Translations under genes and position numbers: made by a program | The notes under the pieces: generated by a model | Seen by the model: only the letters and a program-made list of their open reading frames with translations | What the model was told of the DNA's origin: nothing | Databases searched by the model: none | DNA from: Escherichia coli | GTDB lineage: Bacteria; Pseudomonadota; Gammaproteobacteria; Enterobacterales; Enterobacteriaceae | NCBI RefSeq assembly: GCF_041248615.1 | Contig: NZ_CP158426.1 | Direction: 5' to 3' (one strand) | DNA length: 64,000 nucleotides | Shown here: piece by piece, positions 8,121-44,531 of the stretch | Layout of the letters: every line of letters begins with the position of its first letter | How positions within the stretch are numbered: the stretch's first letter is position 1

Positions 8121-10361
8121 ATGAACAAGAAGATTCATTCCCTAGCCTTGTTGGTCAATCTGGGGATTTATGGGGTAGCGCAGGCACAAGAGCCGACCGA
8201 TACTCCTGTTTCACATGACGATACCATTGTCGTTACCGCCGCCGAGCAGAACTTGCAGGCACCTGGCGTTTCGACCATCACCGCAGATGAAATCCGCAAA
8301 AACCCGGTTGCCCGCGATGTGTCGGAGATCATCCGTACCATGCCAGGCGTTAACCTGACCGGCAACTCCACCAGTGGTCAGCGTGGTAATAACCGCCAGA
8401 TTGATATTCGCGGCATGGGTCCGGAAAACACGCTGATTTTGATTGACGGCAAACCGGTAAGCAGCCGTAACTCGGTGCGTCAGGGCTGGCGTGGCGAGCG
8501 CGATACCCGTGGTGATACTTCCTGGGTGCCACCTGAAATGATTGAACGTATTGAAGTTCTGCGTGGTCCGGCAGCTGCGCGTTATGGCAACGGCGCGGCG
8601 GGCGGCGTGGTTAACATCATTACCAAAAAAGGCAGCGGTGAGTGGCACGGCTCCTGGGACGCTTATTTCAATGCGCCAGAACATAAAGAGGAAGGTGCCA
8701 CTAAACGCACCAACTTCAGCCTGACCGGTCCGCTGGGCGACGAATTCAGCTTCCGCTTGTATGGCAACCTCGACAAAACCCAGGCTGACGCGTGGGATAT
8801 CAACCAGGGCCATCAGTCCGCGCGTGCCGGAACGTATGCCACGACGTTACCAGCCGGGCGCGAAGGGGTGATCAATAAAGATATTAACGGCGTGGTGCGC
8901 TGGGACTTCGCACCATTACAATCGCTGGAACTGGAAGCAGGTTACAGCCGCCAGGGTAACCTGTATGCGGGCGATACCCAGAACACCAACTCTGACTCCT
9001 ATACCCGCTCGAAATATGGCGATGAAACCAACCGTCTGTATCGCCAGAACTACTCGCTGACCTGGAACGGCGGCTGGGATAACGGCGTGACCACCAGCAA
9101 CTGGGTGCAGTACGAACACACCCGTAACTCGCGTATTCCGGAAGGTCTGGCGGGCGGTACCGAAGGGAAATTTAACGAAAAAGCGACACAGGATTTCGTC
9201 GATATCGATCTCGATGACGTGATGCTGCACAGCGAAGTTAACCTGCCGATTGATTTCCTCGTTAACCAGACGCTGACGCTGGGTACGGAGTGGAATCAGC
9301 AGCGGATGAAGGATTTAAGTTCCAACACCCAGGCGCTCACTGGGACGAATACCGGCGGTGCTATTGATGGCGTGAGTGCCACCGACCGTAGCCCGTATTC
9401 AAAAGCAGAAATTTTCTCGCTATTTGCCGAAAACAATATGGAGCTGACTGACAGCACCATCGTAACGCCGGGGCTGCGTTTCGATCATCACAGCATTGTT
9501 GGCAATAACTGGAGTCCGGCTCTAAACATATCGCAAGGTTTAGGCGATGACTTCACGCTGAAAATGGGCATTGCCCGTGCTTATAAAGCGCCGAGTCTGT
9601 ACCAGACTAATCCAAACTACATTCTCTATAGTAAAGGTCAGGGCTGCTATGCCAGCGCGGGCGGCTGCTATCTGCAAGGTAATGATGACCTGAAAGCGGA
9701 AACCAGCATCAACAAAGAGATTGGTCTGGAGTTCAAACGCGACGGCTGGCTGGCGGGCGTCACCTGGTTCCGTAACGATTATCGCAATAAGATTGAAGCG
9801 GGCTATGTGGCTGTAGGGCAAAACGCAGTCGGCACCGATCTCTATCAGTGGGATAACGTACCGAAAGCGGTGGTTGAAGGTCTGGAAGGATCGTTAAACG
9901 TACCGGTTAGCGAAACGGTGATGTGGACCAATAACATCACTTATATGCTGAAGAGTGAAAACAAAACCACGGGCGACCGTTTGTCGATCATCCCGGAGTA
10001 TACGTTGAACTCAACGCTGAGCTGGCAGGCACGGGAAGATTTGTCGATGCAAACAACCTTCACCTGGTACGGCAAGCAGCAGCCGAAGAAGTACAACTAT
10101 AAAGGTCAGCCAGCGGTTGGACCGGAAACCAAAGAAATCAGCCCGTACAGCATTGTTGGCCTGAGCGCGACCTGGGATGTGACGAAGAATGTCAGTCTGA
10201 CCGGCGGCGTGGACAACCTGTTCGACAAACGTTTGTGGCGTGCGGGTAATGCCCAGACCACGGGCGATCTGGCAGGAGCCAACTATATCGCCGGTGCCGG
10301 GGCGTATACCTATAACGAGCCGGGACGTACGTGGTATATGAGCATTAATACTCACTTCTGA
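8121..10361 (+). CDS. fepA: TonB-dependent ferric enterobactin outer membrane receptor
   Basis: 746 aa from MNKKIHSLALLVNLGIYGVAQA signal peptide; TonB box DTIVVTA; C-terminal Phe; track ORF starts at an upstream in-frame GTG. Confidence 0.97.
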   Translation: MNKKIHSLALLVNLGIYGVAQAQEPTDTPVSHDDTIVVTAAEQNLQAPGVSTITADEIRKNPVARDVSEIIRTMPGVNLTGNSTSGQRGNNRQIDIRGMGPENTLILIDGKPVSSRNSVRQGWRGERDTRGDTSWVPPEMIERIEVLRGPAAARYGNGAAGGVVNIITKKGSGEWHGSWDAYFNAPEHKEEGATKRTNFSLTGPLGDEFSFRLYGNLDKTQADAWDINQGHQSARAGTYATTLPAGREGVINKDINGVVRWDFAPLQSLELEAGYSRQGNLYAGDTQNTNSDSYTRSKYGDETNRLYRQNYSLTWNGGWDNGVTTSNWVQYEHTRNSRIPEGLAGGTEGKFNEKATQDFVDIDLDDVMLHSEVNLPIDFLVNQTLTLGTEWNQQRMKDLSSNTQALTGTNTGGAIDGVSATDRSPYSKAEIFSLFAENNMELTDSTIVTPGLRFDHHSIVGNNWSPALNISQGLGDDFTLKMGIARAYKAPSLYQTNPNYILYSKGQGCYASAGGCYLQGNDDLKAETSINKEIGLEFKRDGWLAGVTWFRNDYRNKIEAGYVAVGQNAVGTDLYQWDNVPKAVVEGLEGSLNVPVSETVMWTNNITYMLKSENKTTGDRLSIIPEYTLNSTLSWQAREDLSMQTTFTWYGKQQPKKYNYKGQPAVGPETKEISPYSIVGLSATWDVTKNVSLTGGVDNLFDKRLWRAGNAQTTGDLAGANYIAGAGAYTYNEPGRTWYMSINTHF

Positions 10362-29443: not shown

Positions 29444-32400
29444 ATGAGTGAAGGACCAGGCGGGCCACAGGGAGCGACCGCAGGCGGTACGCTGGCAATG
29501 CGAATGCTGTCACAGCAGGCGATGGTCGCCAGCCAGATGAAACGGGCAGCCAACGACAAAGCCATTGCACAGATGCTGGCATCAAAAAAGTCCGGCCCCC
29601 CCGCCGCCAGGCTGGGCGATGAAATTCAGCACAAGAGTTTTTTGGGGGCGCTGGCAGGGGCCGTGCTGGGGGCGATAGTGACCATCGCAGAAGGTTGCCT
29701 GATTATGGCCGCCTGTGCCACCGGCCCTTATGCGCTGGTTCTGGTGCCTGCGCTGATGTATGCCAGCTATAAGGCGAGTGATTATGTGGAGGAGAAACAG
29801 AACCAGCTTGAATCATGGATAAACAGCTTTTGTGACACGGACGGCGCCATCAATACCGGTTCTGAAAATGTAAACATTAACGGAAAGCCCGCTGCCAGGG
29901 CCGCCGTCACCCTTCCCCCTCCTCCCCCACCTGGAGCAATACCTGAAATCCCACAGGGGGAACCCTCATGGGGTGATATTGCCACTGACCTGCTTGAATC
30001 GGCAGCGGAAAAAGCAGTACCACTGGCGAAGGCCTGGGGGAACGCTGTTATCACCCTGACGGACAGCAATGCCGGTTTTATGGATCGCGTCAGCGCCGGC
30101 GCATCGCTTCTGTTTCCCGCCGGTCCGGTATTAATGGAGTTTGCCACCATGGTGGGCGGGCGTGGCGAAATCAAAAAAGACGTGGATTTCCCGGAAGCCG
30201 GTGAGGACACGGCGCTCTGCGACAAGGAGAACAAACCGCCGAGGATAGCCCAGGGCAGCAGCAACGTCTTTATCAACAATCAGCCTGCTGCACGCAAGGG
30301 GGACAAACTGGAGTGCAGTGCGGCAATCGTGGAAGGTTCGCCGGACGTCTTTATTGGGGGTGAGCAGGTCACCTATCTGGATATCCAGCCGGAGTTCCCG
30401 CCGTGGCAGAGAATGATCCTGGGGGGAATAACGATAGCCAGCTATCTTCTGCCGCCAGCGGGACTGCTGGGAAAACTGAAGAATCTGGCGAGACTCGGCA
30501 AACTGGGAAACCTGCTGGGGAAAAGCGGGAAGCTGCTGGGGGCAAAGCTCGGCGCGTTGCTGGGGAAAACAGGTAAGTCGTTAAAAAGTATTGCCAATAA
30601 AGTCATCAGATGGGTAACAGATCCTGTCGATCCGGTAACCGGCGCATACTGCGACGAACGTACCGACTTTACGCTGGGCCAGACACTCCCCCTCTCCTTC
30701 ACCCGTTTCCACAGTTCTGTACTGCCACTGCATGGCCTGACGGGCGTGGGCTGGAGCGACTCCTGGAGCGAATACGCCTGGGTGCGTGAACAGGGAAACC
30801 GGGTGGATATCATCAGCCAGGGAACCACGCTGAGATTTGCCTTCGACGGTGACAGTGATACGGCGGTTAACCCGTATCACGCCCAGTACATTCTGCGCCG
30901 CCGCGATGATTACCTGGAGCTGTTCGACAGGGATGCACTGAGCAGCCGCTTCTTTTATGACGCCTTTCCGGGAATGCGTCTGCGCCACCCGGTGACTGAC
31001 GATACCAGCGATGACCGTCTGGCACACAGCCCCGCAGACCGGATGTACATGCTGGGCGGGATGAGCGACACCGCCAGCAACCGCATCACGTTTGAGCGCG
31101 ACAGCCAGTACCGGATCACAGGTGTCAGTCACACTGACGGGATCCGGCTTAAACTGACGTACCACGCCAGCGGCTACCTGAAAGCCATTCACCGCACGGA
31201 TAACGGCATACAGACGCTGGCGACCTACGAACAGGATGCGCGGGGGCGGCTGACAGAAGCGGATGCGCGGCTGGACTACCACCTGTTTTATGAGTACGAC
31301 GCTGCGGACCGGATCATCCGCTGGTCCGATAACGACCAGACGTGGAGCCGTTTCACCTACGATGAACAGGGCCGGTGCGTGAATGTCACCGGGGCGGAGG
31401 GCTATTACAACGCCACGCTGGACTATGGTGACGGCTGCACCACCGTGACGGACGGCAAGGGCATTCACCGTTATTACTATGATCCTGACGGCAATATTCT
31501 GCGGGAAGCAGCGCCGGACGGCAGCACCACCATGTATGAATGGGATGAATTCCATCACCTGCTGGCCCGTCACTCCCCTGCCGGGCGGGTGGAGAAATTT
31601 GAATACAACGCCGCACACGGTCAGTTAAGCCGTTACACGGCGGCAGACGGCGCGGAGTGGCAGTACCGCTATGATGAGCGCGGCCTGCTCAGCAACATCA
31701 CCGACCCTGCCGGGCAGACGTGGACACAGCAGTGTGATGAACGCGGCCTGCCGGTAAGTCTGGTGTCGCCACAGGGCGAAGAGACCCGGCTGGCATACAC
31801 CGCTCAGGGGCTGCTGTCGGGAATATTCCGCCAGGATGAACGGCGTCTGGGCATAGAGTACGACCACCACAACCGGCCGGAAACACTCACCGACGTGATG
31901 GGCCGCGAACACCACACCGAATACAGTGGTCACGACCTGCCGGTGAAGATGCGCGGCCCCGGCGGTCAGTCAGTGCGCTTACAGTGGCAGCAGCACCATA
32001 AACTGAGTGGCCTTGAGCGCACTGGCACCGGCGCGGAAGGATTCCGCTACGACCGCCACGGCAACCTGCTGGCCTGGACGGACGGTAACGGTGTTGTCTG
32101 GACAATGGAATACGGCCCGTTTGATTTGCCGGTGGCGCGAACGGACGGTGAAGGCCACCGCTGGCAGTACCGCTACGATAAAGACACGCTGCAACTGACA
32201 GAAGTCATTAACCCGCAGGGTGAGTCATATCTTTATGTTCTGGATAACTGCGGCCGGGTGACGGAAGAGCATGACTGGGGCGGCGTGGTCTGGCGTTACC
32301 GCTATGACGCCGATGGCCTGTGTACCGCCAGGGTCAACGGCCTGGAGGAAACCATCCTCTACAGCCGGGACGCCGCAGGCCGCCTGGCAGAAGTCATCAC

Positions 32401-34303
32401 GCCGGAAGGCAAAACGCAGTATGCCTATGACAAATCCGGCAGGCTGACGGGTATCTTCAGCCCGGACGGCACATCACAGCGCACCGGCTATGACGAACGC
32501 GGGCGGGTGAATGTCACCACTCAGGGCCGACGGGCCATTGAATACCACTACCCCGACGAACACACCGTCATCCGCTGTATCCTGCCACCGGAAGATGAAC
32601 GCGACAGACACCCCGGTGAATCCCTGCTGAAAACCACGTACCGCTACAACGCCGCCGGAGAACTGACGGAGGTCATTCTGCCGGGGGATGAGACGCTGAC
32701 GTTCAGCCGTGATGAGGCAGGACGTGAAGTGCTCCGGCACAGTAACCGGGGTTTTGCCTGTGAACAGGGCTGGAATGCAGCCGGTCAGCCTGTCAGTCAG
32801 CGCGCCGGACTTTTCCCGGCAGAAGCCACATGGGGCGGGCTGCTCCCCTCACGGGTACGGGAGTACCGTTACGACAGCGCGGGTAATGTGTCAGGCGTCA
32901 CCAGCCGGGAAGATTACGGACGGGAAACACGGCGGGAATACCGGCTGGACCGGAACGGCCAGGTCACGGCGGTGACAGCCTCAGGCACCGGGCTGGGCTA
33001 TGGCGAAGGCGATGAGTCCTATGGCTATGACAGCTGCGGCTACCTGAAGGCGCAGTCTGCGGGCTGGCACCGGATAAGTGAAGAGACTGACCAGTATGCC
33101 GGAGGCCACCGGCTGAAACAGGCCGGAAACACGCAGTATGACTATGACGCCGCAGGCCGGATGGTCAGCCGCACCAGACACCGTGACGGCTATCGCCCGG
33201 AAACAGAGCGGTTCCGGTGGGACAGCCGTGACCAGCTGACCGGGTATTGCAGCGCACAGGGTGAGCAGTGGGAATACCGCCACGACGCCAGCGGCAGACG
33301 AACAGAGAAACGCTGCGACCGGAAGAAAATCCGCATCACGTACCTGTGGGACGGCGACAGTATTGCGGAAATCCGGGAATACCGCGATGATAAACTGTAC
33401 AGCGTACGGCACCTGGTGTTTAACGGCTTTGAGCTGATAAGCCAGCAGTTCAGCCGGGTACGGCAGGCGCATCCGTCGGTGGCCCCGCAGTGGGTGACAC
33501 GGACGAATCATGCGGTGAGCGACCTGACGGGCCGTCCGCTGATGCTCTTTAACAGTGAAGGTAAAACCGTCTGGCGACCGGGACAGACCAGCCTGTGGGG
33601 GCTGGCACTCAGCCTGCCCGCGGACACCGGCTACCCGGACCCGCGCGGGGAGCTGGACGCGGAAGCCGCCCCCGGCCTGCTGTATGCGGGACAGTGGCAG
33701 GATGCGGAATCGGGGCTGTGCTATAACCGGTTCCGGTACTACGAGCCGGAAACCGGGATGTACCTGGTGAGTGATCCGCTGGGGTTGCAGGGAGGGGAAC
33801 AGACTTACCGGTATGTGCCTAATCCGTGTGGGTATGTTGATCCGCTGGGGCTGGCAAAAACTTCTGTTCCCGTATCAATAGTAGAACCAAAAAAAATCAC
33901 TGGTAACTTTAAAACAATTCGAGAAAAATTAAGGCTTGCCAGGAATGGTGATGTTTCTGCACAAGCCGAAATTGCATACGCAAAATATATGCGTAGTTTG
34001 GGAAAGGATGTGCATTTCAATACACCTCCGAATCGCTCAGTATCAATGGCAGATTTTACAATTGATGGAATCCAGGTTGATACAAAATTATTGAGTGGTA
34101 TAGGCGGAAATGCTGCAAAAAATGTTAACAAGGGAGTTGGCCAGGTGGGAGATAATGGTATCGTCCTGGTAATTAGAAATTCTAATTCCAAAAATACACT
34201 TGAGGAATTTCATGAATTCTTTGGAAACTTCAAACCTAATAATTCAACAGTTCGAGTTGAAGTGATTGATCAATCCGTTTTAGAACCTTTTTGGAGATTT
34301 TAA
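29444..34303 (+). CDS. rhs: prePAAR/PAAR-Rhs polymorphic toxin (full length) with variable C-terminal toxin domain CT1
   Basis: 1619 aa; prePAAR motif AARLGDEIQH (29603-29632), two TM helices, PAAR-like region, many YD repeats, demarcation PxxxxDPxGL (PCGYVDPLGL), then AT-rich 149-aa CT. Confidence 0.95.
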   Translation: MSEGPGGPQGATAGGTLAMRMLSQQAMVASQMKRAANDKAIAQMLASKKSGPPAARLGDEIQHKSFLGALAGAVLGAIVTIAEGCLIMAACATGPYALVLVPALMYASYKASDYVEEKQNQLESWINSFCDTDGAINTGSENVNINGKPAARAAVTLPPPPPPGAIPEIPQGEPSWGDIATDLLESAAEKAVPLAKAWGNAVITLTDSNAGFMDRVSAGASLLFPAGPVLMEFATMVGGRGEIKKDVDFPEAGEDTALCDKENKPPRIAQGSSNVFINNQPAARKGDKLECSAAIVEGSPDVFIGGEQVTYLDIQPEFPPWQRMILGGITIASYLLPPAGLLGKLKNLARLGKLGNLLGKSGKLLGAKLGALLGKTGKSLKSIANKVIRWVTDPVDPVTGAYCDERTDFTLGQTLPLSFTRFHSSVLPLHGLTGVGWSDSWSEYAWVREQGNRVDIISQGTTLRFAFDGDSDTAVNPYHAQYILRRRDDYLELFDRDALSSRFFYDAFPGMRLRHPVTDDTSDDRLAHSPADRMYMLGGMSDTASNRITFERDSQYRITGVSHTDGIRLKLTYHASGYLKAIHRTDNGIQTLATYEQDARGRLTEADARLDYHLFYEYDAADRIIRWSDNDQTWSRFTYDEQGRCVNVTGAEGYYNATLDYGDGCTTVTDGKGIHRYYYDPDGNILREAAPDGSTTMYEWDEFHHLLARHSPAGRVEKFEYNAAHGQLSRYTAADGAEWQYRYDERGLLSNITDPAGQTWTQQCDERGLPVSLVSPQGEETRLAYTAQGLLSGIFRQDERRLGIEYDHHNRPETLTDVMGREHHTEYSGHDLPVKMRGPGGQSVRLQWQQHHKLSGLERTGTGAEGFRYDRHGNLLAWTDGNGVVWTMEYGPFDLPVARTDGEGHRWQYRYDKDTLQLTEVINPQGESYLYVLDNCGRVTEEHDWGGVVWRYRYDADGLCTARVNGLEETILYSRDAAGRLAEVITPEGKTQYAYDKSGRLTGIFSPDGTSQRTGYDERGRVNVTTQGRRAIEYHYPDEHTVIRCILPPEDERDRHPGESLLKTTYRYNAAGELTEVILPGDETLTFSRDEAGREVLRHSNRGFACEQGWNAAGQPVSQRAGLFPAEATWGGLLPSRVREYRYDSAGNVSGVTSREDYGRETRREYRLDRNGQVTAVTASGTGLGYGEGDESYGYDSCGYLKAQSAGWHRISEETDQYAGGHRLKQAGNTQYDYDAAGRMVSRTRHRDGYRPETERFRWDSRDQLTGYCSAQGEQWEYRHDASGRRTEKRCDRKKIRITYLWDGDSIAEIREYRDDKLYSVRHLVFNGFELISQQFSRVRQAHPSVAPQWVTRTNHAVSDLTGRPLMLFNSEGKTVWRPGQTSLWGLALSLPADTGYPDPRGELDAEAAPGLLYAGQWQDAESGLCYNRFRYYEPETGMYLVSDPLGLQGGEQTYRYVPNPCGYVDPLGLAKTSVPVSIVEPKKITGNFKTIREKLRLARNGDVSAQAEIAYAKYMRSLGKDVHFNTPPNRSVSMADFTIDGIQVDTKLLSGIGGNAAKNVNKGVGQVGDNGIVLVIRNSNSKNTLEEFHEFFGNFKPNNSTVRVEVIDQSVLEPFWRF

Positions 34304-34307
34304 AAAT

Positions 34308-34784
34308 ATGATCACCAAATCAAGTATACTCATAGAGTATAAAGATAAAAGTAAACTAACCGAAAGTATTTATAAGTTTGTAAATGCTCTAGATATTGAC
34401 TTTTCGATATTAAAATATGACTACTTTGATGTAAATGAGTATAAAAAAAATATTACTTATGACACATCTTTTATTGACAAAGATGCAGAATATATTGAAT
34501 TATTAGCGAAGATTGATTTTTCTTATGAAGTTGATTTCGGCACATCAACAACATCGATTGAAAGCAAGTATCTTCCATCTCTAACTGATTTCATCGCTCA
34601 ATCACTATCACAACAATTAAATTGTAACATAATAACCAGCTTTAAACCATTAAGTGGAGATGAGTTTTGCCCAATAACATATTTTTCAAAAGGTAAAGAA
34701 GTTATCAATTTTACGACATTTAATTCAAATTGTTGGGATGGGGTATACTGGGTAAAAAAAAGGAGGCAAACAAATATCCGCTAA
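34308..34784 (+). CDS. Putative cognate immunity protein for Rhs CT1
   Basis: 158 aa, AT-rich ORF 5 nt after the rhs stop, in the usual immunity position. Confidence 0.6.
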   Translation: MITKSSILIEYKDKSKLTESIYKFVNALDIDFSILKYDYFDVNEYKKNITYDTSFIDKDAEYIELLAKIDFSYEVDFGTSTTSIESKYLPSLTDFIAQSLSQQLNCNIITSFKPLSGDEFCPITYFSKGKEVINFTTFNSNCWDGVYWVKKRRQTNIR

Positions 34785-34902: not shown

Positions 34903-37233
34903 GTGAAGATGCGCGGCCCCGGCGGTCAGTCAGTGCGGTTGCAGTGGCAGCAGCACCATAAACTGAGTGGCCTTGAGCGCACTGGCACCGGCGCGGAAGG
35001 GTTCAGCTATGACCGCCACGGCAACCTGCTGGCCTGGACGGACGGCAATGGTGTTGTCTGGACAATGGAGTACGGCCCGTTCGATTTGCCGGTGGCGCGA
35101 ACGGACGGTGAAGGCCACCGCTGGCAGTACCGCTATGATAAAGACACGCTGCAACTGACAGAAGTCATTAACCCGCAGGGTGAGTCATATCTTTATGTTC
35201 TGGATAACTGCGGCCGGGTGACGGAAGAGCATGACTGGGGCGGCGTGGTCTGGCGTTACCGCTATGACGCCGATGGCCTGTGTACCGCCAGGGTCAACGG
35301 CCTGGAGGAAACCATCCTCTACAGCCGGGACGACGCAGGCCGCCTGGCAGAAGTCATCACGCCGGAAGGCAAAACGCAGTATGCGTATGACAAATCCGGC
35401 AGGCTGACGGGTATCTTCAGCCCGGACGGCACATCACAGCGCACCGGCTATGACGAACGCGGGCGGGTGAATGTCACCACTCAGGGCCGACGGGCCATTG
35501 AATACCACTACCCCGATGAACACACCGTCATCCGCTGTATCCTGCCACCGGAAGATGAACGCGACAGACACCCCGGTGAATCCCTGCTGAAAACCACGTA
35601 CCGCTACAACGCAGCCGGAGAACTGGCAGAGGTCATCCTGCCGGAGGATGAGACGCTGACGTTCAGCCGTGATGAGGCAGGACGTGAAGTGCTCCGGCAC
35701 AGTAACCGGGGTTTTGCCTGTGAGCAGGGCTGGAATGCAGCCGGTCAGCTTACCAGCCAGCGCGCCGGACTTTTCCCGGCAGAAGCCACATGGGGCGGGC
35801 TGCTCCCCTCACGGGTACGGGAGTACCGTTACGACAGCGCGGGTAATGTGTCAGGCGTCACCAGCCGGGAAGATTACGGACGGGAAACACGGCGGGAATA
35901 CCGGCTGGACCGGAACGGCCAGGTCACGGCGGTGACAGCCTCAGGCACCGGGCTGGGCTATGGCGAAGGCGATGAGTCCTATGGCTATGACAGCTGCGGC
36001 TACCTGAAGGCGCAGTCTGCGGGCTGGCACCGGATAAGTGAAGAGACTGACCAGTATGCCGGAGGCCACCGGCTGAAACAGGCCGGAAACACGCAGTATG
36101 ACTATGACGCCGCAGGCCGGATGGTCAGCCGCACCAGACACCGTGACGGCTATCGCCCGGAAACAGAGCGGTTCCGGTGGGACAGCCGTGACCAGCTGAC
36201 CGGGTATTGCAGCGCACAGGGTGAGCAGTGGGAATACCGCCACGACGCCAGCGGCAGACGAACAGAGAAACGCTGCGACCGGAAGAAAATCCGCATCACG
36301 TACCTGTGGGACGGCGACAGTATTGCGGAAATCCGGGAATACCGCGATGATAAACTGTACAGCGTACGGCACCTGGTGTTTAACGGCTTTGAGCTGATAA
36401 GCCAGCAGTTCAGCCGGGTACGGCAGGCGCATCCGTCGGTGGCCCCGCAGTGGGTGACACGGACGAATCATGCGGTGAGCGACCTGACGGGCCGTCCGCT
36501 GATGCTCTTTAACAGTGAAGGTAAAACCGTCTGGCGACCGGGACAGACCAGCCTGTGGGGGCTGGCACTCAGCCTGCCCGCGGACACCGGCTACCCGGAC
36601 CCGCGCGGGGAACTGGACGCGGAAGCCGACCCCGGCCTGCTGTATGCAGGACAGTGGCAGGATGCGGAATCCGGGCTGTGCTATAACCGGTTCCGGTATT
36701 ACGAGCCGGAAACAGGGATGTACCTGGTGAGTGATCCGCTGGGGTTGCTGGGGGGTGAGCAGACTTACCGGTATGTGCCGAATCCGTGTGGGTATGTTGA
36801 TCCTTTGGGATTAGCAACATGTCCCATAATCAGACAACGGGTGCTGGCTAACCTTGAAGCCAGTCGGGCAGCAAGGGCTGCATCTAATTTTGGTAAGAAA
36901 AATATCTATGATTTTATCAAGGCAACTCAATCTGCTATCCCTGGCACCTCTATCCCAAAATCTTTTGAGATTATAACTGCTAATGGTACTTTCTGGGTAC
37001 ACCCAAATGCTACAAAACATATGGCTGAATATTTGACTCGGAACGGTCTCTCACATTCAACTTCTGTAGAGAGCCAAATAATGTTAACAAGTTTTCACGA
37101 AGCTGTAAGTTTGGCTAGTGCTCAAGGTATAAAGTATGAAGAAATGATGAATGTTGGCGGCTGGGAACTAGTATTTAGTCAAGCTAAATCTGACTCGGCT
37201 TTATCAGTTATTAAACATGCTCTTTATAAATGA
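34903..37233 (+). CDS. rhs: Orphan 5'-truncated rhs fragment (core repeat plus distinct C-terminal toxin CT2)
   Basis: 776-aa ORF with GTG start; 34892-36813 nearly identical to main rhs 31932-33853; PxxxxDPxGL followed by unrelated 139-aa CT. Confidence 0.85.
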   Translation: MKMRGPGGQSVRLQWQQHHKLSGLERTGTGAEGFSYDRHGNLLAWTDGNGVVWTMEYGPFDLPVARTDGEGHRWQYRYDKDTLQLTEVINPQGESYLYVLDNCGRVTEEHDWGGVVWRYRYDADGLCTARVNGLEETILYSRDDAGRLAEVITPEGKTQYAYDKSGRLTGIFSPDGTSQRTGYDERGRVNVTTQGRRAIEYHYPDEHTVIRCILPPEDERDRHPGESLLKTTYRYNAAGELAEVILPEDETLTFSRDEAGREVLRHSNRGFACEQGWNAAGQLTSQRAGLFPAEATWGGLLPSRVREYRYDSAGNVSGVTSREDYGRETRREYRLDRNGQVTAVTASGTGLGYGEGDESYGYDSCGYLKAQSAGWHRISEETDQYAGGHRLKQAGNTQYDYDAAGRMVSRTRHRDGYRPETERFRWDSRDQLTGYCSAQGEQWEYRHDASGRRTEKRCDRKKIRITYLWDGDSIAEIREYRDDKLYSVRHLVFNGFELISQQFSRVRQAHPSVAPQWVTRTNHAVSDLTGRPLMLFNSEGKTVWRPGQTSLWGLALSLPADTGYPDPRGELDAEADPGLLYAGQWQDAESGLCYNRFRYYEPETGMYLVSDPLGLLGGEQTYRYVPNPCGYVDPLGLATCPIIRQRVLANLEASRAARAASNFGKKNIYDFIKATQSAIPGTSIPKSFEIITANGTFWVHPNATKHMAEYLTRNGLSHSTSVESQIMLTSFHEAVSLASAQGIKYEEMMNVGGWELVFSQAKSDSALSVIKHALYK

Positions 37234-37763
37234 CGATTATGCTTACATTAGAAAATGAAACAAACTACAAAGATGTTGTTGTTAATATAGATGAATTTGT
37301 ACCTTTTGATATAACTTTTGGAAAGGGGAGCGAACAGTGTTTGTACTGGAGAGGCGGCAATGGTAAAAGTTCTTTGGTTGAAGTTGGGTTAAATATGTAC
37401 AGCGGAGAAGTAAGTAACATCACACTAGCAAATATCGATTCAGGTGAAATTAACATTACAGATGAGATGTTAGCCAACAACCTTCCTGAAATACAAGGGT
37501 CTGTTATATTTCAGACAAGCGAGTGGCTTAATAAAGACATTTCCGAATACTCAAACAGATTTATTGATGATTTTGATTGCAATATCAAGTTAATAATTGG
37601 TAGTAATTACATTAAATTATTATTTAAAAAAGCAACAAATCCCATTTGTTATATCATTAATAGGAATATAAGATTTGGTTTTTCTTTGAGTAGGGAACTT
37701 TCGACATTGGAAATATTAGACCTCAATCAAGAAAAATTAGATATTCTAAAGTTATTTAAATAG
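37230..37763 (+). CDS. Putative cognate immunity protein for orphan CT2
   Basis: 177 aa AT-rich ORF whose ATG overlaps the rhs-CT2 stop (ATGA). Confidence 0.6.
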   Translation: MTIMLTLENETNYKDVVVNIDEFVPFDITFGKGSEQCLYWRGGNGKSSLVEVGLNMYSGEVSNITLANIDSGEINITDEMLANNLPEIQGSVIFQTSEWLNKDISEYSNRFIDDFDCNIKLIIGSNYIKLLFKKATNPICYIINRNIRFGFSLSRELSTLEILDLNQEKLDILKLFK

Positions 37764-38242
37764 TTTTAGTGTTTGAAACTTACCGAGAGATGATAGCTAT
37801 GAATGAATACAAAAACATCCATCTTGGAGGAAACAATGGAATGTTAATCCATTAAAAAACATACTTCAATATCTTTAGTGAAGAAAGAGTTGTATGAAAG
37901 AAATATATCTTATGTGAGCGACATGATGCATGCTAATTATATTATTGGCCGGAAATTTTATGATGATAGCAAAAAGGAGGGGTTATTTCTGTAAGAATGG
38001 ATATACCCGCAGGGTTTGAACCAGACATTTATTTGTTGAAGTCTAAGATCCAAATGGAAGCATTTATATCCCTCAGATATTATGCGTTGACGGGTTGATA
38101 AAGATACTTTTAGAGGGTTAATAAATGGAGAACGTATAATAAATCTCTTAAACAAACTATAACCTGTACTAATGAAAAAAATGGGAATAGATAAGTTAAT
38201 AGCCTATTCTAAAAATGGTAAAGTGGTTTTACTTCCAAAATA

Positions 38243-38686
38243 ATGGAGTTTAGTATGAAAATCGAAGCTAATTCCCTTACTCATCCCTATGACTACAACG
38301 CCTCACTGAACAATTATTTACATTATTTTGAGAATTTCTCTCGTAATGACTGGAATAAAGATTCATGTGGAGGATATTTTACTTTTAGAGATGATGACAG
38401 AGAGTGTGTTTTGTTTTTTGTGAATTATGGTGATAATTTTTCATTGCGCTATGATTGTACACAAAGTTCTGATGGAATAGTGTCATGCTGGTATAGTAAC
38501 CATGAAGATGATAAAATGAATATCATCGTCGATGCTGATACAGAACAATTTATCCCTTTAGGTTCTTGCTTACCTCCTGATATTACTTTATCAGTAATAA
38601 AAGATTTTTTCAAAAATCCTTTAGAGAAATCAAAAAAAGTAAAATGGATGAATGCAGATGACATTGACTGGTCATCTGTGTATTAA
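38243..38686 (+). CDS. Hypothetical protein, possible orphan immunity protein
   Basis: 147 aa AT-rich ORF inside the Rhs island with no adjacent toxin; no recognised motif. Confidence 0.4.
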   Translation: MEFSMKIEANSLTHPYDYNASLNNYLHYFENFSRNDWNKDSCGGYFTFRDDDRECVLFFVNYGDNFSLRYDCTQSSDGIVSCWYSNHEDDKMNIIVDADTEQFIPLGSCLPPDITLSVIKDFFKNPLEKSKKVKWMNADDIDWSSVY

Positions 38687-38911
38687 AGTTGGATTGGATA
38701 ATTATCTGTTTCAAAAATCATTAAATTTAGAACCTATCTGTTCAACAGAGCTGCCTTGAACAGCAGGTTCTTTTATGATGTCCAGGAGCGAATATGCCTG
38801 TGATGTCTGGCACTCAGCATCTGACTGACCTGGACTACTGATCCTACTCACACAGGGAGCTAGACCTGGAAGCAACCTACTGTAAGCAGTGCAGTAGCAG
38901 CCCACCTCACA

Positions 38912-38950
38912 TCAGTCCTTGCAAGGTGTGGGCCTTTGTGATCTTGCTCT
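38912..38950. mobile_element. Degenerate remnant resembling the right terminus of an H-repeat/ISAs1-family element
   Basis: About 31 of 40 nt identical to the right end of the complete H-repeat copy at 44492-44531. Confidence 0.3.
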
Positions 38951-39297
38951 GTATTGCTGAGATCCTCAGGAAGGACTCGAAATTTAATCAGGAAGGCCGT
39001 TGCTAAAAATCAAAAAATAAATTCAAGAGCAATTTCTAAAACTTTTGAATCTACTGTATCGGATGAGGTTTTCACTCCTTTCCAAAAGGTGAGTTTTCAA
39101 GCATTCAAGTTTCTGTTATGACCAAAACTTCACCATTTAACACTAATCCGAGTATTATGTTACCATGAAGAAAAAAGATATTAGATTTGCAATATCCATT
39201 AACTCCAACTCAAGTAAGATAGAATTAATGGAAAAATTAAAAACATAATCCCAGGGCTTATTGAAATAACTCCCAGTGCATTAAGAGAAGAAAAAAC

Positions 39298-39513
39298 ATG
39301 GTAGTTATTGAAGATAATGATCTTTATGACCCTATAAAAGCAGAGGGAGTTGATGGATGGATGTATTATAAATTCATATTATCCATATTCCCATTAAAGG
39401 GAGTAGACACAACATTAGAATATCAACGGGAATTATCTTTTCTTTTCTTAAAGAAATTAAAAGATGCGGGTCTGTTAGGTGAACTTATATGCGAGGATGA
39501 TTTTCATGACTGA
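39298..39513 (+). CDS. Hypothetical small protein (71 aa), possible immunity-gene remnant
   Basis: ORF only; AT-rich; within Rhs island. Confidence 0.25.
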   Translation: MVVIEDNDLYDPIKAEGVDGWMYYKFILSIFPLKGVDTTLEYQRELSFLFLKKLKDAGLLGELICEDDFHD

Positions 39514-39577
39514 TGACCTCTACATATATCCTCAGTTCGTGGCTGGTATTACATGATCTGACAGGGAAAGATCGTAG

Positions 39578-39873
39578 CGAAATCAAAAAAGACGTGGATT
39601 TCCCGGAAGCCGGTGAAGACACAGCGCTCTGCGACAAGGAGACTAAACCGCCGAGGATAACCCAGGGCAGCAGCAACGTTTTTATCAACAATCAGCCCGC
39701 CGCGCGCAAGGGGGACAAACTGGAGTGCAGTGCGGCGATCGTGGGAGGTTCGCCGGACGTCTTTATTGGGGGTGAGCAGGTCACCTATCTGGATATCCAG
39801 CCGGAGTTCCCGCCGTGGCAGAGAATGATCCTGGGGGGAATAACGATAGCCAGCTATCTTCTGCCGCCAGCGC
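39578..39873 (+). pseudogene. Fragment of a PAAR-Rhs N-terminal (PAAR) region
   Basis: About 296 bp nearly identical to main rhs 30166-30461; lies in track ORF 39513-39890; abutted on the right by H-repeat end sequence. Confidence 0.75.
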
Positions 39874-39960
39874 AGGGAAAGATCACGTAACGCTGCTTTT
39901 TTGTACTAAATAATTCGCACTAAATGTTCAATAATTGAGATATTCCTTATTACCTAAATA
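39874..39960. mobile_element. Left-terminus remnant (about 85 bp) of an H-repeat/ISAs1-family element
   Basis: Matches the first ~90 bp of the complete H-repeat at 43242-43335 (cagggaaagatca...ttgtactaaataattcgca...ttgagatattcct). Confidence 0.55.
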
Positions 39961-40003
39961 CAGTTCCACCAAGATTACCTAAACCCAAATGAGGTAAAAG
40001 ATA

Positions 40004-40372
40004 GTGGGTATGAATAAAAATGAAATCCATTTCCCTATAGGATATGGTTGGTTGAATGAAAAAAAAATTATTGGCACCAGTGAATTTAGCCAATTAGAAC
40101 CATGGTTTTATCTAGATGAGAACAGGTGTTTTTTTGCGAATAAAAAATGGCCAAATGTCATAGGTGAACAATTATTCGCTTTTGCTAAACGTCAAGATAA
40201 TGATGAATTGGCTTGTTTCAAAATTAATGAATCTGGAGTCTGTGAGGGTGTTTATTTAATTAATGGGTGGACTCCTAACGGGTTTGATATTATACAATTT
40301 TACCCTGATTTTTGGGAATGGGTACATTTGGTTATACAAGATGTCTCGGAGTGGATTGATAATAAAGGATAA
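40004..40372 (+). CDS. Hypothetical protein, possible orphan immunity protein
   Basis: 122 aa AT-rich ORF upstream of orphan rhs-CT3; no recognised motif. Confidence 0.4.
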   Translation: MGMNKNEIHFPIGYGWLNEKKIIGTSEFSQLEPWFYLDENRCFFANKKWPNVIGEQLFAFAKRQDNDELACFKINESGVCEGVYLINGWTPNGFDIIQFYPDFWEWVHLVIQDVSEWIDNKG

Positions 40373-40401
40373 TTTGAAACAAAAGTAAAAAACCGCCTTC
40401 A

Positions 40402-41100
40402 TTGAAGGTAACGTGGAGTGGTGGGCGGAGCAGCCTGCCCGCAGACACAGACTACCCGGACCCGCGCGGGGAGCGGGACGCGGAAGCCGACCCCGGCCTG
40501 CTGTATGCAGGACAGTGGCAGGATGCGGAATCCGGACTGTGCTATAACCGGTTCCGGTATTACGAGCCGGAAACCGGGATGTACCTGGTGAGTGATCCCC
40601 TGGGGTTGCTGGGGGGTGAGCAGACTTACCGGTATGTGCCTAATCCTAGTGGGTATGTTGATCCTCTGGGATTAGCAACGTGTCCTATACTCAGACAGTG
40701 GGCGCTGACTAACCTTGAAGCCAGTCGGGCAGCAAGGGCTGCATCTAATTTTGGTAAGCCTCTGGTCCAGCGAAATAAAACGATTGGCGATAAAGTAAGG
40801 GATATGATTGCCAAAGAGAGGGGAACCACTCTAATTGAACAAAATTATAGAGTGACAGGAGGATTAAAGCGTATTGACGTTGTTGATGGAGTAACGGGTA
40901 TAGAATCTAAAGTCGGTCGAACAGGGTTAACAACCCGAGTACGGCAAGAGGTAGCGCGGGATATTAAGATTTTGAGAAGTGAGCAACTTGATCAAATTGA
41001 ATGGGTGTTTACAAGAAGTTCAACTACAGGGAAGATTGGGCCAACTAAACCACTTGAAGATCTTTTAAATAAACATGGTATACCGATTATTTATCGATAA
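40402..41100 (+). CDS. rhs: Orphan rhs C-terminal fragment (short core remnant plus toxin CT3 with possible PD-(D/E)xK-like motif)
   Basis: 232-aa ORF with TTG start; 40432-40674 homologous to the end of the main rhs core; PxxxxDPxGL then 141-aa CT containing RIDVVDGVTGIESK. Confidence 0.8.
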   Translation: MKVTWSGGRSSLPADTDYPDPRGERDAEADPGLLYAGQWQDAESGLCYNRFRYYEPETGMYLVSDPLGLLGGEQTYRYVPNPSGYVDPLGLATCPILRQWALTNLEASRAARAASNFGKPLVQRNKTIGDKVRDMIAKERGTTLIEQNYRVTGGLKRIDVVDGVTGIESKVGRTGLTTRVRQEVARDIKILRSEQLDQIEWVFTRSSTTGKIGPTKPLEDLLNKHGIPIIYR

Positions 41101-41111
41101 GGAGTGATAGT

Positions 41112-41681
41112 GTGAAACTCAAACCGATTGGTGACTTTTTAAACAAAAATGGGTTTATAAAAAATGGTAACAATGATTTTTATAAAGTTCATGATAAGTT
41201 TGTAAATTGTATAAATTTTCAAAAAAAGAGTACAGGTGATATTTTTTTTATAAACACAGGTGTTCATCCTGTGTTCGAAAATTTTTGCAATGAACCACCG
41301 AAAAAAGAAATAGATTGTTACATCCGTAACCGTGTGTGTGATGGACTAAGTATATCTTTGCTGCATTCTTTTGAAGGTAGTGAGTTTGTTATCAGTGAGA
41401 TAAAAAACAAAGCGTTTTGTTTTTTTGAATACTTTGATTCATTGAATAAAATATTCGATGCTATTCGTGTTGTAGATATTGAAGAGAGAAATATTTGCGA
41501 TGAGCTAAGTGGTGTAAGCAGCGTAAGATTAGCTTTGATGTGTATGAACTACCAGTATGAGAAAAAAAAATTTAGCCTTGTTTCTGATTTTGCGAACTAT
41601 GGTCTTGCTATATCTAGAGGCCCGGTACCGAAAAAAGCATTGGATTTGCCCCTATATTTCCAGACACCTGTTATCACTTAA
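41112..41681 (+). CDS. Putative immunity protein for CT3, 3' end disrupted by IS2
   Basis: 189-aa ORF; last 13 codons lie inside IS2; the original frame resumes after the IS2 target duplication. Confidence 0.55.
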
Positions 41682-42557
41682 CCCATTACTGGCCTGCTGC
41701 CGCAGATATTCCCGTGGCGAGCGATAACCCAGTGCACTATGCGGATGCCATTCGTTATAATGCTCGAACGCCTCTGCAAGGTTCTTTGCTGCCGTTAACC
41801 CGTCTGGTTTAGGCATGATACTGATGTAGTCACGCTTTATCGTTTTCACGAAGCTCTCTGCTATGCCGTTACTCTCCGGACTCCGCACCGCCGTGTTCTT
41901 CGGTTCAAGCCCCAATATCCGGGCAAACTGCCGTGTTTCATTAGCCCGGTAGCATGAACCATTATCCGTCAGCCACTCTACTGGAGACGCCGGAAGCTCG
42001 TTGCCGAAGCGGCGTTCCACCGCTCCCAGCATGACGTCCTGTACTGTTTCACTGTCGAAGCCGCCCGTAGTGACTGCCCAGTGCAGTGCCTCACGGTCAC
42101 AGCAGTCCAGCGCGAACGTGACTCGCAGTTTTTCTCCGTTATCACAGCGGAACTCGAACCCGTCAGAGCACCATCGTTGATTGCTTTCTTTCACGGCCAC
42201 TTTGCCAGTATGTGCCCGTTTCGATGGCGGTACAGCGGTTTTTCGCTCAAGCAACAGCGCATTCTGGCGCATGATCCGGTAAACACGTTTGGCATTGATC
42301 GCAGGCGTACCATCAAGTTCGGCCTGTCTGCGAAGCAGCGCCCATACCCGACGATAACCATACGTGGGCAGCTCTCCGATAACATGGTGTATACGGAGAA
42401 GCACATCCGTATCATCTGAGTGACGGCTGCGGCGACCATCTTTCCAGTCATCGGTTCGTCTGAGAATTACGTGCAACTGCGCACGCGACACCCGGAGACA
42501 ACGGCTGACTAAGCTTACTCCCCATCCCCGGGCAATAAGGGCGCGTGCGCTATCCAC
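41652..42557 (-). CDS. insD: IS2 transposase OrfB
   Basis: 301 aa integrase-core protein recognised as IS2 InsD. Confidence 0.95.
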
Positions 42558-42880
42558 TTTTTTGCACGCCCGTATTCAACGGCTTCTTTAAGGAGTTCAT
42601 TTTCCATCGTTTTTTTGCCGAGCAGGCGCTGGAGTTCTTTAATCTGCTTCATGGCAGCAGCAAGTTCAGAGGCAGGAACGACCTGCTCTCCTGCGGCCAC
42701 AGCAGTAAGACTTCCCTCCTGGTATTGCTTGCGCCAGAGAAATAACTGGCTGGCTGCCACACCGTGTTGCCGGGCAACAAGGGAGACCTTCATTCCCGGT
42801 TCAAAACTCTGCTGAACAATAGCGATCTTTTCCTGTGTAGTACGCCGTCTGCGTTTCTCCGGTCCTAAGACATCAATCAT
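42515..42880 (-). CDS. insC: IS2 transposase OrfA (HTH)
   Basis: 121 aa from [14 protein letters not shown]; overlaps insD by 43 nt, consistent with the IS3-family frameshift window. Confidence 0.9.
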
Positions 42881-43023
42881 CTGCTCTCCAATGACTAGTC
42901 TAAAAACTAGTATTAAGACTATCACTTATTTAAGTGATATTGGTTGTCTGGAGATTCATGGGGCCAGTCTAAGCATTTAAGGATATGATAAAAATAACAG
43001 AGTGATACCTAATCCGGTGTAAT

Positions 43024-43242
43024 ACTTGCTGCCTGTGTACCGCGAAGATTAACGGCCGGGAGGAAACTATTCTCTACAACCGGGACGCCACAGGCCGCCT
43101 GGCAGAAGTCATCACGCCGGAAGGCAAAACGCAGTATGCGTATGACAAATCCGGCAGGCTGACGGGTATCTTCAGCCCGGACGACACATCACAGCGCACC
43201 GGCTATGAAGAACGCGGGCGGGTGAATGTCACCACTCAGGGC
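43024..43242 (+). pseudogene. Internal rhs core fragment (about 215 bp)
   Basis: Homologous to main rhs about 32322-32535; bounded by the IS2 flank on the left and the H-repeat terminus on the right. Confidence 0.7.
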
Positions 43243-44531
43243 AGGGAAAGATCATCCAAAGTACACTTTTTGTACTAAATAATTCGCATTTTATGTTTAA
43301 AAATTGAGATATTCCTCATTACCTAAAGCTGTTTTTATTGCTTATACATGATCAAATACTCCTTACATAATTAAGGAGAACAAAATGGAACTTAAAAAAT
43401 TGATGGAGCATATTTCTATTATCCCCGATTACAGACAAGCCTGGAAAGTGGAACATAAATTATCGGATATTCTACTGTTGACTATTTGTGCCGTTATTTC
43501 TGGTGCAGAAGGTTGGGAAGATATAGAGGATTTTGGGGAAACACATCTCGATTTTTTAAAACAATATGGTGATTTTGAAAATGGTATTCCTGTTCACGAT
43601 ACCATCGCCAGAGTTGTATCCTGTATCAGTCCTTCAAAATTTCACGAGTGCTTTATTAACTGGATGCGAGATTGCCATACTTCAGATGATAAAGACGTTA
43701 TTGCAATCGATGGAAAAACACTCCGGCATTCTTATGACAAGAGTCGCCGCAGGGGAGCGATTCATGTCATTAGTGCGTTCTCAACAATGCACAGTCTGGT
43801 CATCGGACAGATCAGAACGGATGAGAAATCTAATGAGATTACAGCTATCCCAGAACTTCTTAACATGCTGTATATTAAAGGAAAAATCATCACAACTGAT
43901 GCGATGGGTTGCCAGAAAGATATTGCAGAGAAGATACAAAAACAGGGCGGTGATTATTTATTCGCTGTAAAAGGAAACCAGGGGCGGCTTAATAAAGCCT
44001 TTGAGGAAAAATTTCCACTGAAAGAATTAAATAATCCAGAGCATGACAGTTACGCCATTAGTGAAAAGAGTCACGGCAGAGAAGAAATCCGTCTTCATAT
44101 TGTTTGCGATGTCCCTGATGAACTTATTGATTTCACGTTTGAATGGAAAGGACTGAAGAAATTATGTGTGGCAGTCTCCTTTCGGTCAATAATAGCAGAA
44201 CAAAAGAAAGAGCCAGAAATGACGGTCAGATATTATATCAGTTCTGCTGATTTAACCGCAGAGAAGTTCGCCACAGCAATCCGAAACCACTGGCACGTGG
44301 AGAATAAGCTGCACTGGCGTCTGGACGTGGTAATGAATGAAGACGACTGCAAAATAAGAAGAGGAAACGCCGCAGAATTATATTCAGGGATACGGCACAT
44401 CGCTATTAATATTTTAACGAATGATAAGATATTCAAGGCAGGGTTAAGACGTAAGATGCGAAAAGCAGCCATGGGCAGAAACTATCTCGCGTCAGTCCTT
44501 GCGGGGAGCGGGCTTTCGTAATCTTGCCCTG
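43242..44531 (+). mobile_element. H-repeat (ISAs1-family) insertion element, complete copy of about 1.29 kb
   Basis: Imperfect terminal inverted repeats cagggaaagatca / (reverse complement) cagggcaagatta; encodes a 378-aa transposase. Confidence 0.8.
43385..44521 (+). CDS. H-repeat-associated (ISAs1-family DDE) transposase
   Basis: 378 aa, recognised as the H-repeat protein family found next to Rhs elements. Confidence 0.9.

Follow-up and report, generated by a model that had tools for sequence, protein, structure and literature searches.

Toxin stubs and orphan immunity genes point to successive tip replacement at an Escherichia coli Rhs locus

Three small genes between two toxin cassettes

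Where do small genes come from that sit between the toxin cassettes of an Rhs array with no intact toxin of their own? The question is raised by a 64,000-nucleotide stretch of Escherichia coli contig NZ_CP158426.1 (assembly GCF_041248615.1), hereafter the window. Its positions 37764–40372, between cassettes that carry the second and third C-terminal tips (CT2 and CT3) of a type VI secretion system (T6SS) Rhs effector locus, hold the open reading frames (ORFs) 38243–38686 (ORF1), 39298–39513 (ORF2) and 40004–40372 (ORF3). An earlier note on this DNA had located the three frames and a PAAR fragment correctly and had read them as orphan immunity genes, kept after toxin loss, with no adjacent toxin. 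We found that each of the three ORFs indeed goes back to an immunity gene that lost its toxin, and that homologues of each adjoin full toxin genes in other genomes. The absence of an adjacent toxin holds for intact toxins only: the 3′ stub of a toxin gene precedes each ORF, so that the toxins were lost as intact genes but not cleanly, with 26, about 71 and 10 codons remaining. The segment very probably records, layer upon layer, how toxin tips were replaced at a single E. coli T6SS Rhs effector locus.

One alternative is that the three frames are open only by chance, in AT-rich junk. RefSeq labels each of them 'hypothetical protein', and searches with the single ORF sequences gave no match in NCBIfam or PADLOC and only marginal or spurious ones in Pfam. 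The homologues of these ORFs in other genera, at 38–50% identity, tell against this alternative, as do structure models of good or moderate confidence, which agree with known immunity folds. Because the homologues of each ORF are under purifying selection, with family-level ratios of non-synonymous to synonymous substitution (dN/dS) of 0.07–0.25, the three are not chance frames. That explanation, refuted for ORF1 and ORF3 and faced at ORF2 with a 71-amino-acid frame that is a fragment of a real gene, is scarcely credible. The GC content falls from about 60% in the rhs core to 28–33% in the tips and small genes, the three ORFs included, which is the usual signature of horizontally exchanged toxin–immunity modules.

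ORF1 follows the end of a deaminase toxin gene

ORF1 is an intact orphan immunity gene of 143 amino acids (38255–38686, plus strand), full-length relative to its homologues; RefSeq starts it at the ATG at 38255, with GGAG six nucleotides upstream, inside a frame open from 38243. Before it lies a 3′ stub of 26 codons and a stop (38162–38242, plus strand) from a MafB19-like deaminase Rhs C-terminal toxin, identified by DNA homology and tblastn. Homology to the full toxin gene of E. coli CFSAN064035 (locus L002) begins exactly at 38162, with 98% identity, and tblastn aligned the stub to the toxin C-terminus with 24 of 27 identities. The full toxin matches Pfam MafB19-deam (PF14437, E 1.4e-12) and carries the motifs HAEAH...CPNC. 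CFSAN064035 has a full-length PAAR-Rhs gene at the equivalent vgrG–eagR locus by nfrB, with its stop 11 bp before a 143-amino-acid protein that differs from ORF1 at four residues. More distant homologues occur in Salmonella enterica (70% identical, 12 bp after MafB19-deam genes) and in Achromobacter (50% identical, at the end of a small-gene orphan array after a filamentous-haemagglutinin gene).

A blastn search of complete E. coli genomes with 37764–38700 gave two classes of match: the entire stretch was present in 135 genomes, and in about 30 the match ran from 38162 only, under an Rhs gene and a hypothetical protein. The deaminase tip is complete in 31 complete E. coli genomes and the 82-bp stub stands alone in 135, at one place each, which leaves antidotes without a toxin in 135 complete genomes and the toxin in only 31. 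Because the stub-carrying genomes have this single matching place and no full deaminase tip, ORF1 is a true orphan in the window lineage. This and our other searches for absent toxins in E. coli genomes were made at the DNA level.

The predicted structure of ORF1 has the alpha+beta fold of DddI, the immunity protein of the double-stranded DNA deaminase toxin DddA, solved in complex with it (PDB 6u08). A further likeness is the deaminase-fold toxin directly upstream of ORF1-family genes in E. coli and Salmonella; the differences are a sequence identity to DddI of only about 10%, with no sequence-level match, and a toxin that belongs to the MafB19 clade. PDB sequence searches with ORF1 and its profile returned nothing or spurious repeat-protein matches. 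Profile searches against immunity families, which the earlier note had proposed, placed ORF1 only marginally, below threshold, against Pfam Imm1 (PF14430, E 0.14–0.15, C-terminal half), the best of eight relatives reaching 1.3e-3. The C-terminal tryptophan, invariant in the ORF1 family, fits the description of Imm1 by Iyer et al. 2011, in whose list the partners of the MafB19 clade are SUFU and SUKH rather than Imm1.

A preprint on strain O22:H8 154 (bioRxiv 10.1101/2024.03.05.583533) describes an Rhs-MafB19 effector with a downstream immunity protein and regards the pair as characterised before, with reference to Ma et al. 2017 (Environ Microbiol 19:345). On this account, ORF1 partners the Rhs-MafB19 deaminase effector of E. 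coli and hence does not belong to an uncharacterised family. The correspondence covers the vgrG–eagR–rhs island and an immunity gene equivalent to the ORF1 family, and O22:H8 154 is itself among the matches found here. Strains of that kind have an intact toxin with its cognate immunity gene, whereas the window lineage has the stub and the immunity gene only.

ORF2 is the remnant of a gene that followed a nucleotidyltransferase toxin

Positions 38951–39168 (plus strand) hold a 3′ stub of about 71 codons, interrupted by one frameshift, from an Rhs C-terminal toxin of nucleotidyltransferase (NTase) fold, identified by tblastn and DNA comparison. It is followed by a pseudogene of a 116-amino-acid immunity gene (39165–39513, plus strand), the toxin stop overlapping the start of that gene (ATGA). 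Alignment with the intact copy at locus L003, in a strain of O121:H19 type, showed two single-nucleotide deletions in A runs that break the frame into an N-terminal piece (39165–39248, 27 residues) and ORF2 (39298–39513). ORF2 as it had first been delimited is therefore not a gene but the C-terminal 71 residues of a 116-residue one, and it is dead.

The toxin was recognised through a metagenomic Rhs array (L007/L008), to whose last 71 toxin residues tblastn aligned two segments of the window, in different frames, with 60% and 72% identity. The tip in that array matches NTP_transf_2 (PF01909, E 1.1e-5), with weak nucleotidyltransferase matches in NCBIfam, and 12 bp after it lies an intact ORF2 homologue (64% identity). 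At the DNA level, 38951–39168 is 95.9% identical to the complete toxin–immunity module of E. coli N3 (locus L020), where the NTase tip belongs to the main Rhs at the equivalent locus and is followed by an overlapping, 97% identical 116-amino-acid gene, then by a PAAR fragment and a complete insertion sequence (IS) of the ISAs1 family. N3 thus looks like the source state of the window's ORF2, PAAR and IS-end segment. A search with the L007 toxin DNA found a complete NTase tip in only two E. coli genomes. As a separate observation, the main Rhs with the NTase tip in N3 (L020, 1627–8323) is annotated as frameshifted, and its PAAR fragment is shorter.

The 116-amino-acid gene is intact in L003 and N3. 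Its homologue at locus L004 (O114:H49; 8479–8793) has a 5-nt deletion of its own and an altered C-terminus, and the family is thus decaying independently in at least two lineages. Another homologue (79% identity) lies in a small-gene array with only about 13 toxin codons left upstream. The ORF2 protein was not recognised by Pfam (marginal or spurious matches only), NCBIfam, PADLOC or PHROGs, and the family looks rare, as no further copies emerged when contigs of 100,044 species genomes were scanned with the ORF2 alignment.

ORF3 pairs with an unclassified toxin domain

ORF3 is an intact orphan immunity gene (40010–40372, plus strand) that we place in the SUKH/SMI1-KNR4 superfamily; it encodes 120 amino acids from the RefSeq start, the ATG at 40010, or 122 from the GTG at 40004, and is full-length relative to its homologues. 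The stub before it (39960–39992, plus strand) is the shortest of the three, 10 codons and a stop (TVPPRLPKPK*), and comes from an unclassified toxin domain. It is identical at 10 of 10 positions to the C-terminal end of the Rhs toxin that precedes an ORF3 homologue on metagenomic contig L006, where a gene 73% identical to ORF3 lies 18 bp after an Rhs tip ending TVPPRLPKPK. Homologues with 46%, 41% and 38% identity stand behind the equivalent toxin domain in L014, L021 and L022–L024, respectively, bringing to six the metagenomic contigs on which ORF3 relatives and the preceding domain occur together (L006, L014, L021 and L022–L024).

The toxin domain lies directly before the ORF3-family genes at L006 2–556, L014 3–467, L021 1–363 and L022 ~2227–2610, and is carried by Rhs proteins and, in L022, by a long non-Rhs protein. 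It has the motifs DPxxLRWTQxTAGGxGRA and VDHTRAAVALELGI, and its PPRLP-type C-terminus is conserved in L014, L021 and L022. Searches with the domain gave no Pfam, NCBIfam or PDB sequence match, and only weak ParB-like matches in PHROGs.

ORF3 itself was difficult to classify. A word-indexed search found only three clusters, of which one bears the UniRef label SMI1/KNR4, and an exhaustive HMMER search found 125 representative clusters. ORF3 alone matched none of the Pfam SUKH-clan models, whereas SMI1_KNR4 was reached by some of its relatives, 2 of 54 at E ≤1e-3 and 7 of 54 at E ≤0.1. PDB sequence searches with the ORF3 profile and the third toxin returned nothing or spurious repeat-protein matches, and Foldseek found no match for the structure model (predicted local distance difference test score, pLDDT, 95). 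The model has the SUKH fold of YobK (2prv), RhsPI (8bd1) and Tdi1 (8g0k), and on this predicted fold ORF3 is a short, divergent SUKH-superfamily immunity protein; it differs from typical SUKH-1 proteins, which are longer than its 120 residues, and its partner toxin domain is unclassified. The suggestion in the earlier note that the ORFs could be uncharacterised immunity families consequently stands for ORF2 only.

We tentatively propose, while leaning against the joint claim, that both remaining pairs are new: that the NTase-fold Rhs tip and the 116-amino-acid ORF2 family may be an uncharacterised toxin–immunity pair, and that the domain before the ORF3-family genes may represent a kind of polymorphic toxin not yet described, served by its own family of short SUKH-like immunity proteins. 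If so, the window keeps 'fossils' of both pairs, pointing to the full pairs in N3 and in the metagenomic contigs.

A truncated second rhs gene and a solo insertion sequence end

Between ORF2 and the ORF3 toxin stub lies the PAAR-region fragment, present as the earlier note had reported, although its length is 300 bp (39573–39872, plus strand) and not 296 bp. In RefSeq it appears as a partial PAAR pseudogene. The fragment shares 96% identity with 30161–30460 of the main rhs gene and comprises 100 codons, equivalent to residues 240–339 of the main Rhs, without the N- and C-terminal parts. It is thus a gene fragment and not a complete VgrG-capping PAAR domain. In L004 the same junction after ORF2 runs on into a 4.1-kb N-truncated Rhs-AHH gene, and the fragment is accordingly the 5′ end of a second, N-truncated rhs gene that lacks its first ~240 codons.

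Homology to rhs ends at ~39872–39875, and there follows a solo left-end fragment of an ISAs1-family (H-repeat) element of about 91 bp (39868–39958, plus strand). It is 82% identical to 43237–43327, the left end just upstream of the window's ISAs1 transposase gene. No transposase gene is present at 39868–39958; N3 has one at the equivalent place. As the IS fragment and the ORF3 toxin stub meet at 39958/39960, a deletion probably extended from within the IS almost to the end of the toxin gene. A 79-bp core of the fragment occurs in about five copies in nearly every E. coli genome, and in K-12 an ISAs1 transposase gene follows it at a distance of 58 bp. We had considered the 79-bp repeat at 39880–39958 as a novel repeat and rejected this, the repeat being the ISAs1 left end.

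Gene orders suggest stepwise displacement

The equivalent loci of other strains can be arranged around the same elements. N3 has the main Rhs with the NTase tip, then ORF2. L004 and L002 have the main Rhs with the deaminase tip, then ORF1, the NTase stub and ORF2. L003 has the main Rhs with CT2, its immunity gene (Imm2), an AT-rich relic, the deaminase stub, ORF1, the NTase stub and ORF2. The window has the main Rhs with a first tip (CT1), its immunity gene (Imm1), the now orphan CT2 and Imm2, and from there the same downstream string as L003. Read logically from these gene orders, N3, L004/L002, L003 and the window would form a nested series in which every step places one new module in front and cuts short the tip that was there before.

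A replacement of this kind would bring in a module of C-terminal toxin and immunity gene, with the left crossover in the conserved rhs core and the right joint inside the C-terminal coding region of the old toxin. The old toxin would be destroyed, and its last codons, together with its immunity gene, would be pushed downstream. Three leftovers would have arisen in this way: the deaminase stub with ORF1, the NTase stub with the frameshifted ORF2, and the stub of the unclassified toxin with ORF3. The second rhs gene, between the second and third of them, would have been cut to 300 bp by ISAs1 and a later deletion. By analogy, immunity proteins of these kinds would each bind the cognate toxin domain one-to-one and block the toxin. 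Binding to the toxin domain is established from the solved complexes of DddI, YobK and RhsPI. ORF1 and ORF3, if transcribed, would then protect against neighbours that still fire those toxins.

Several points weigh against this reading. The nested series orders four strains by logic and is not a dated phylogeny. That ORF1 and ORF3 are expressed and protective in this strain is an assumption, and there is no convincing sigma-70-like promoter in the segment, where we counted 8 sites against 16 expected by chance. Neutralisation of the deaminase by an ORF1 that differs from the toxin-linked protein at four residues is assumed. No DNA matching the toxin of ORF3 turned up in the 5,426 complete E. 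coli genomes, which makes a current selective benefit of ORF3 doubtful. Finally, displacement leaves 37764–38161 and 38687–38950 unexplained. As to transcription, internal promoters in the rhs core drive tip-plus-immunity transcripts in enterohaemorrhagic E. coli (EHEC; PMC7618764). Since 37000–40700 contains no plus-strand terminator-like site, read-through from the main rhs promoter or from internal core promoters is plausible.

Some of the same observations fit another history, in which ORF1 and ORF3 are immunity leftovers by origin and neutral passengers today that have not yet decayed as ORF2 has. ORF2 is broken in the window lineage and independently in L004, the toxin of ORF3 is missing from the complete E. 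coli genomes, and promoter-like sites are not in excess. Moreover, the window copy of ORF1 and the toxin-linked copy differ at only seven sites (four non-synonymous, three synonymous), too few to measure constraint on the orphan. Yet both ORF1 and ORF3 are full-length, in a segment at least 99% identical at its best place in 129 records, and a 143-codon open frame in DNA of 32% GC decays fast without selection. ORF1, furthermore, has a plausible target, as the deaminase toxin circulates in the 31 complete E. coli genomes at the same locus. We therefore regard neutral persistence as rather unlikely, if a genuine contender.

Protection against displaced toxins could also have given way to a new role, one or more of the small proteins having been repurposed, for example for RNA binding or gene regulation. 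There is a precedent in RhsFI, a T6SS Rhs immunity protein of EHEC from a locus that may be equivalent, which binds small RNAs and affects gene expression (PMC7618764), and some RefSeq records call the neighbouring Imm2 gene (WP_001370340.1) an 'RNA-binding protein'. Nothing in ORF1 or ORF3 points in this direction, however; the structures nearest to theirs are those of immunity proteins bound to toxins, and their relatives occur strictly together with toxin genes, which makes repurposing very unlikely.

Relation to known orphan modules

Orphan toxin/immunity modules downstream of rhs and cdiA, formed by displacement of C-terminal regions, have reportedly been described by Jackson 2009, Poole 2011 and Koskiniemi 2014 (PMC3967940). 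The segment resembles these classical orphans in the type of locus, in orientation, in having AT-rich modules after a GC-rich core and in the old modules being pushed downstream. It differs in what was kept: classical orphans retain a piece of the rhs core and a complete tip, as CT2 and CT3 do, whereas here the toxin is reduced to 10–71 codons, so that only the immunity gene survives and the toxin cannot be re-armed by recombination.

A further parallel is the T6SS orphan immunity arrays of V. cholerae, which were formed by sequential effector displacement (PMC5361080). There, as proposed here, inserted modules replace the effector and keep the immunity gene through an illegitimate right joint, and the benefit suggested for it is that cells are shielded from kin in which the old effector persists. 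The V. cholerae arrays involve cargo effectors, whereas the E. coli window has Rhs tips in an IS-shaped array, with one immunity gene visibly decaying.

Orphan immunity genes in Rhs loci are an ordinary, well-described outcome, and current understanding of Rhs systems is unchanged. The new content is modest: three RefSeq hypothetical proteins are assigned partners and folds, and one unclassified toxin domain is added. In a clinically common E. coli lineage, the Rhs effector locus would thus record its own history, with a stub and an antidote for each replaced tip. Such orphan antidotes can decide survival on contact with toxin-armed relatives, and the state of the genes, with ORF1 intact while its toxin circulates and ORF2 decaying when its toxin is nearly gone, fits immunity that persists only under threat.

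Resident cassettes and neighbouring features

The locus is of the vgrG–eagR–PAAR-Rhs type of T6SS and adjoins nfrB on the E. coli chromosome, according to the RefSeq annotation of NZ_LT599825, to which 37700–40460 is 100% identical; the same interval is present at ≥80% coverage in 96 of the 5,426 complete E. coli genomes. RefSeq places VgrG and then a DcrB-related (EagR-type) chaperone upstream of the main rhs gene on the plus strand. The main effector is a PAAR-Rhs of 1,619 amino acids with the CT1 tip (29444–34303, plus strand), followed directly by CT1's own immunity gene (34308–34784). An N-truncated Rhs with the orphan CT2 tip (34903–37233) comes next, with its immunity gene Imm2 (37230–37763), and beyond ORF3 a short Rhs core fragment with the CT3 tip (40402/40432–41100) precedes a DUF4304 gene, which is CT3's immunity gene (41112–41681). 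RefSeq then lists IS3, ISAs1, nfrB and nfrA.

This arrangement bears on whether the three ORFs are orphans at all or extra immunity or accessory genes for the resident CT1, CT2 and CT3. The ORF1–ORF3 array does lie downstream of the main rhs effector gene in the same plus orientation, within one array. But each resident tip has its own gene directly downstream (34308–34784, 37230–37763 and 41112–41681), and the stub in front of each ORF comes from another toxin, with which relatives of that ORF pair elsewhere. We consider service to the resident toxins exceedingly unlikely and rejected it, there being a dedicated downstream gene for every resident tip; the ORFs are better read as leftovers of displaced ones.

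Two pieces of the segment stand apart from the three stubs and their ORFs. The first is the AT-rich relic of 398 bp between the CT2 immunity gene and the deaminase stub (37764–38161, plus strand), which always accompanies CT2/Imm2 and ORF1 (135 genomes). It contains three stretches without a stop codon, 48, 42 and 23 codons long, which alternate between plus-strand frames and can be joined into a reading of about 122 amino acids from near 37800, and it may be a fourth, fully decayed orphan gene. The conceptual 122-amino-acid reading had no relative in 100,044 species genomes, and the relic had none by tblastx against all fetched loci, nor in plasmids or phages. A diverged deaminase tip was considered for the relic and rejected, as tblastn matched only the 27-codon stub (26 amino acids and a stop).

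The second piece is a 264-bp tail of the ORF1 module (38687–38950), richer in GC than its neighbours at about 42%. It is contiguous with ORF1 in L002, L003 and L004, and homology to N3 begins only at 38951. The tail has no coding signal and no match outside the locus; a search of 38690–38960 gave no Rfam match, and its single-strand fold z-score of −1.1 is unremarkable.

Further observations concern the flank and related arrays. An IS3-family transposase ORF (41652–42925, minus strand) shares 30 bp with the 3′ end of the DUF4304 immunity gene (window 41652–41681), and the IS3 insertion may have changed the C-terminus of the DUF4304 protein. Another short rhs-core fragment, a partial pseudogene in RefSeq, lies at ~43030–43270 between IS3 and ISAs1, and an antisense ORF at 43074–43199 repeats the antisense ORF at 35319–35444. 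Lastly, genes of the SymE_toxin family directly adjoin Rhs orphan arrays, in opposite orientation, in L005 (853–1284), L006 (974–1405), L007 (1914–2375) and L016 (3727–3960), neighbours that come from several unrelated contigs.

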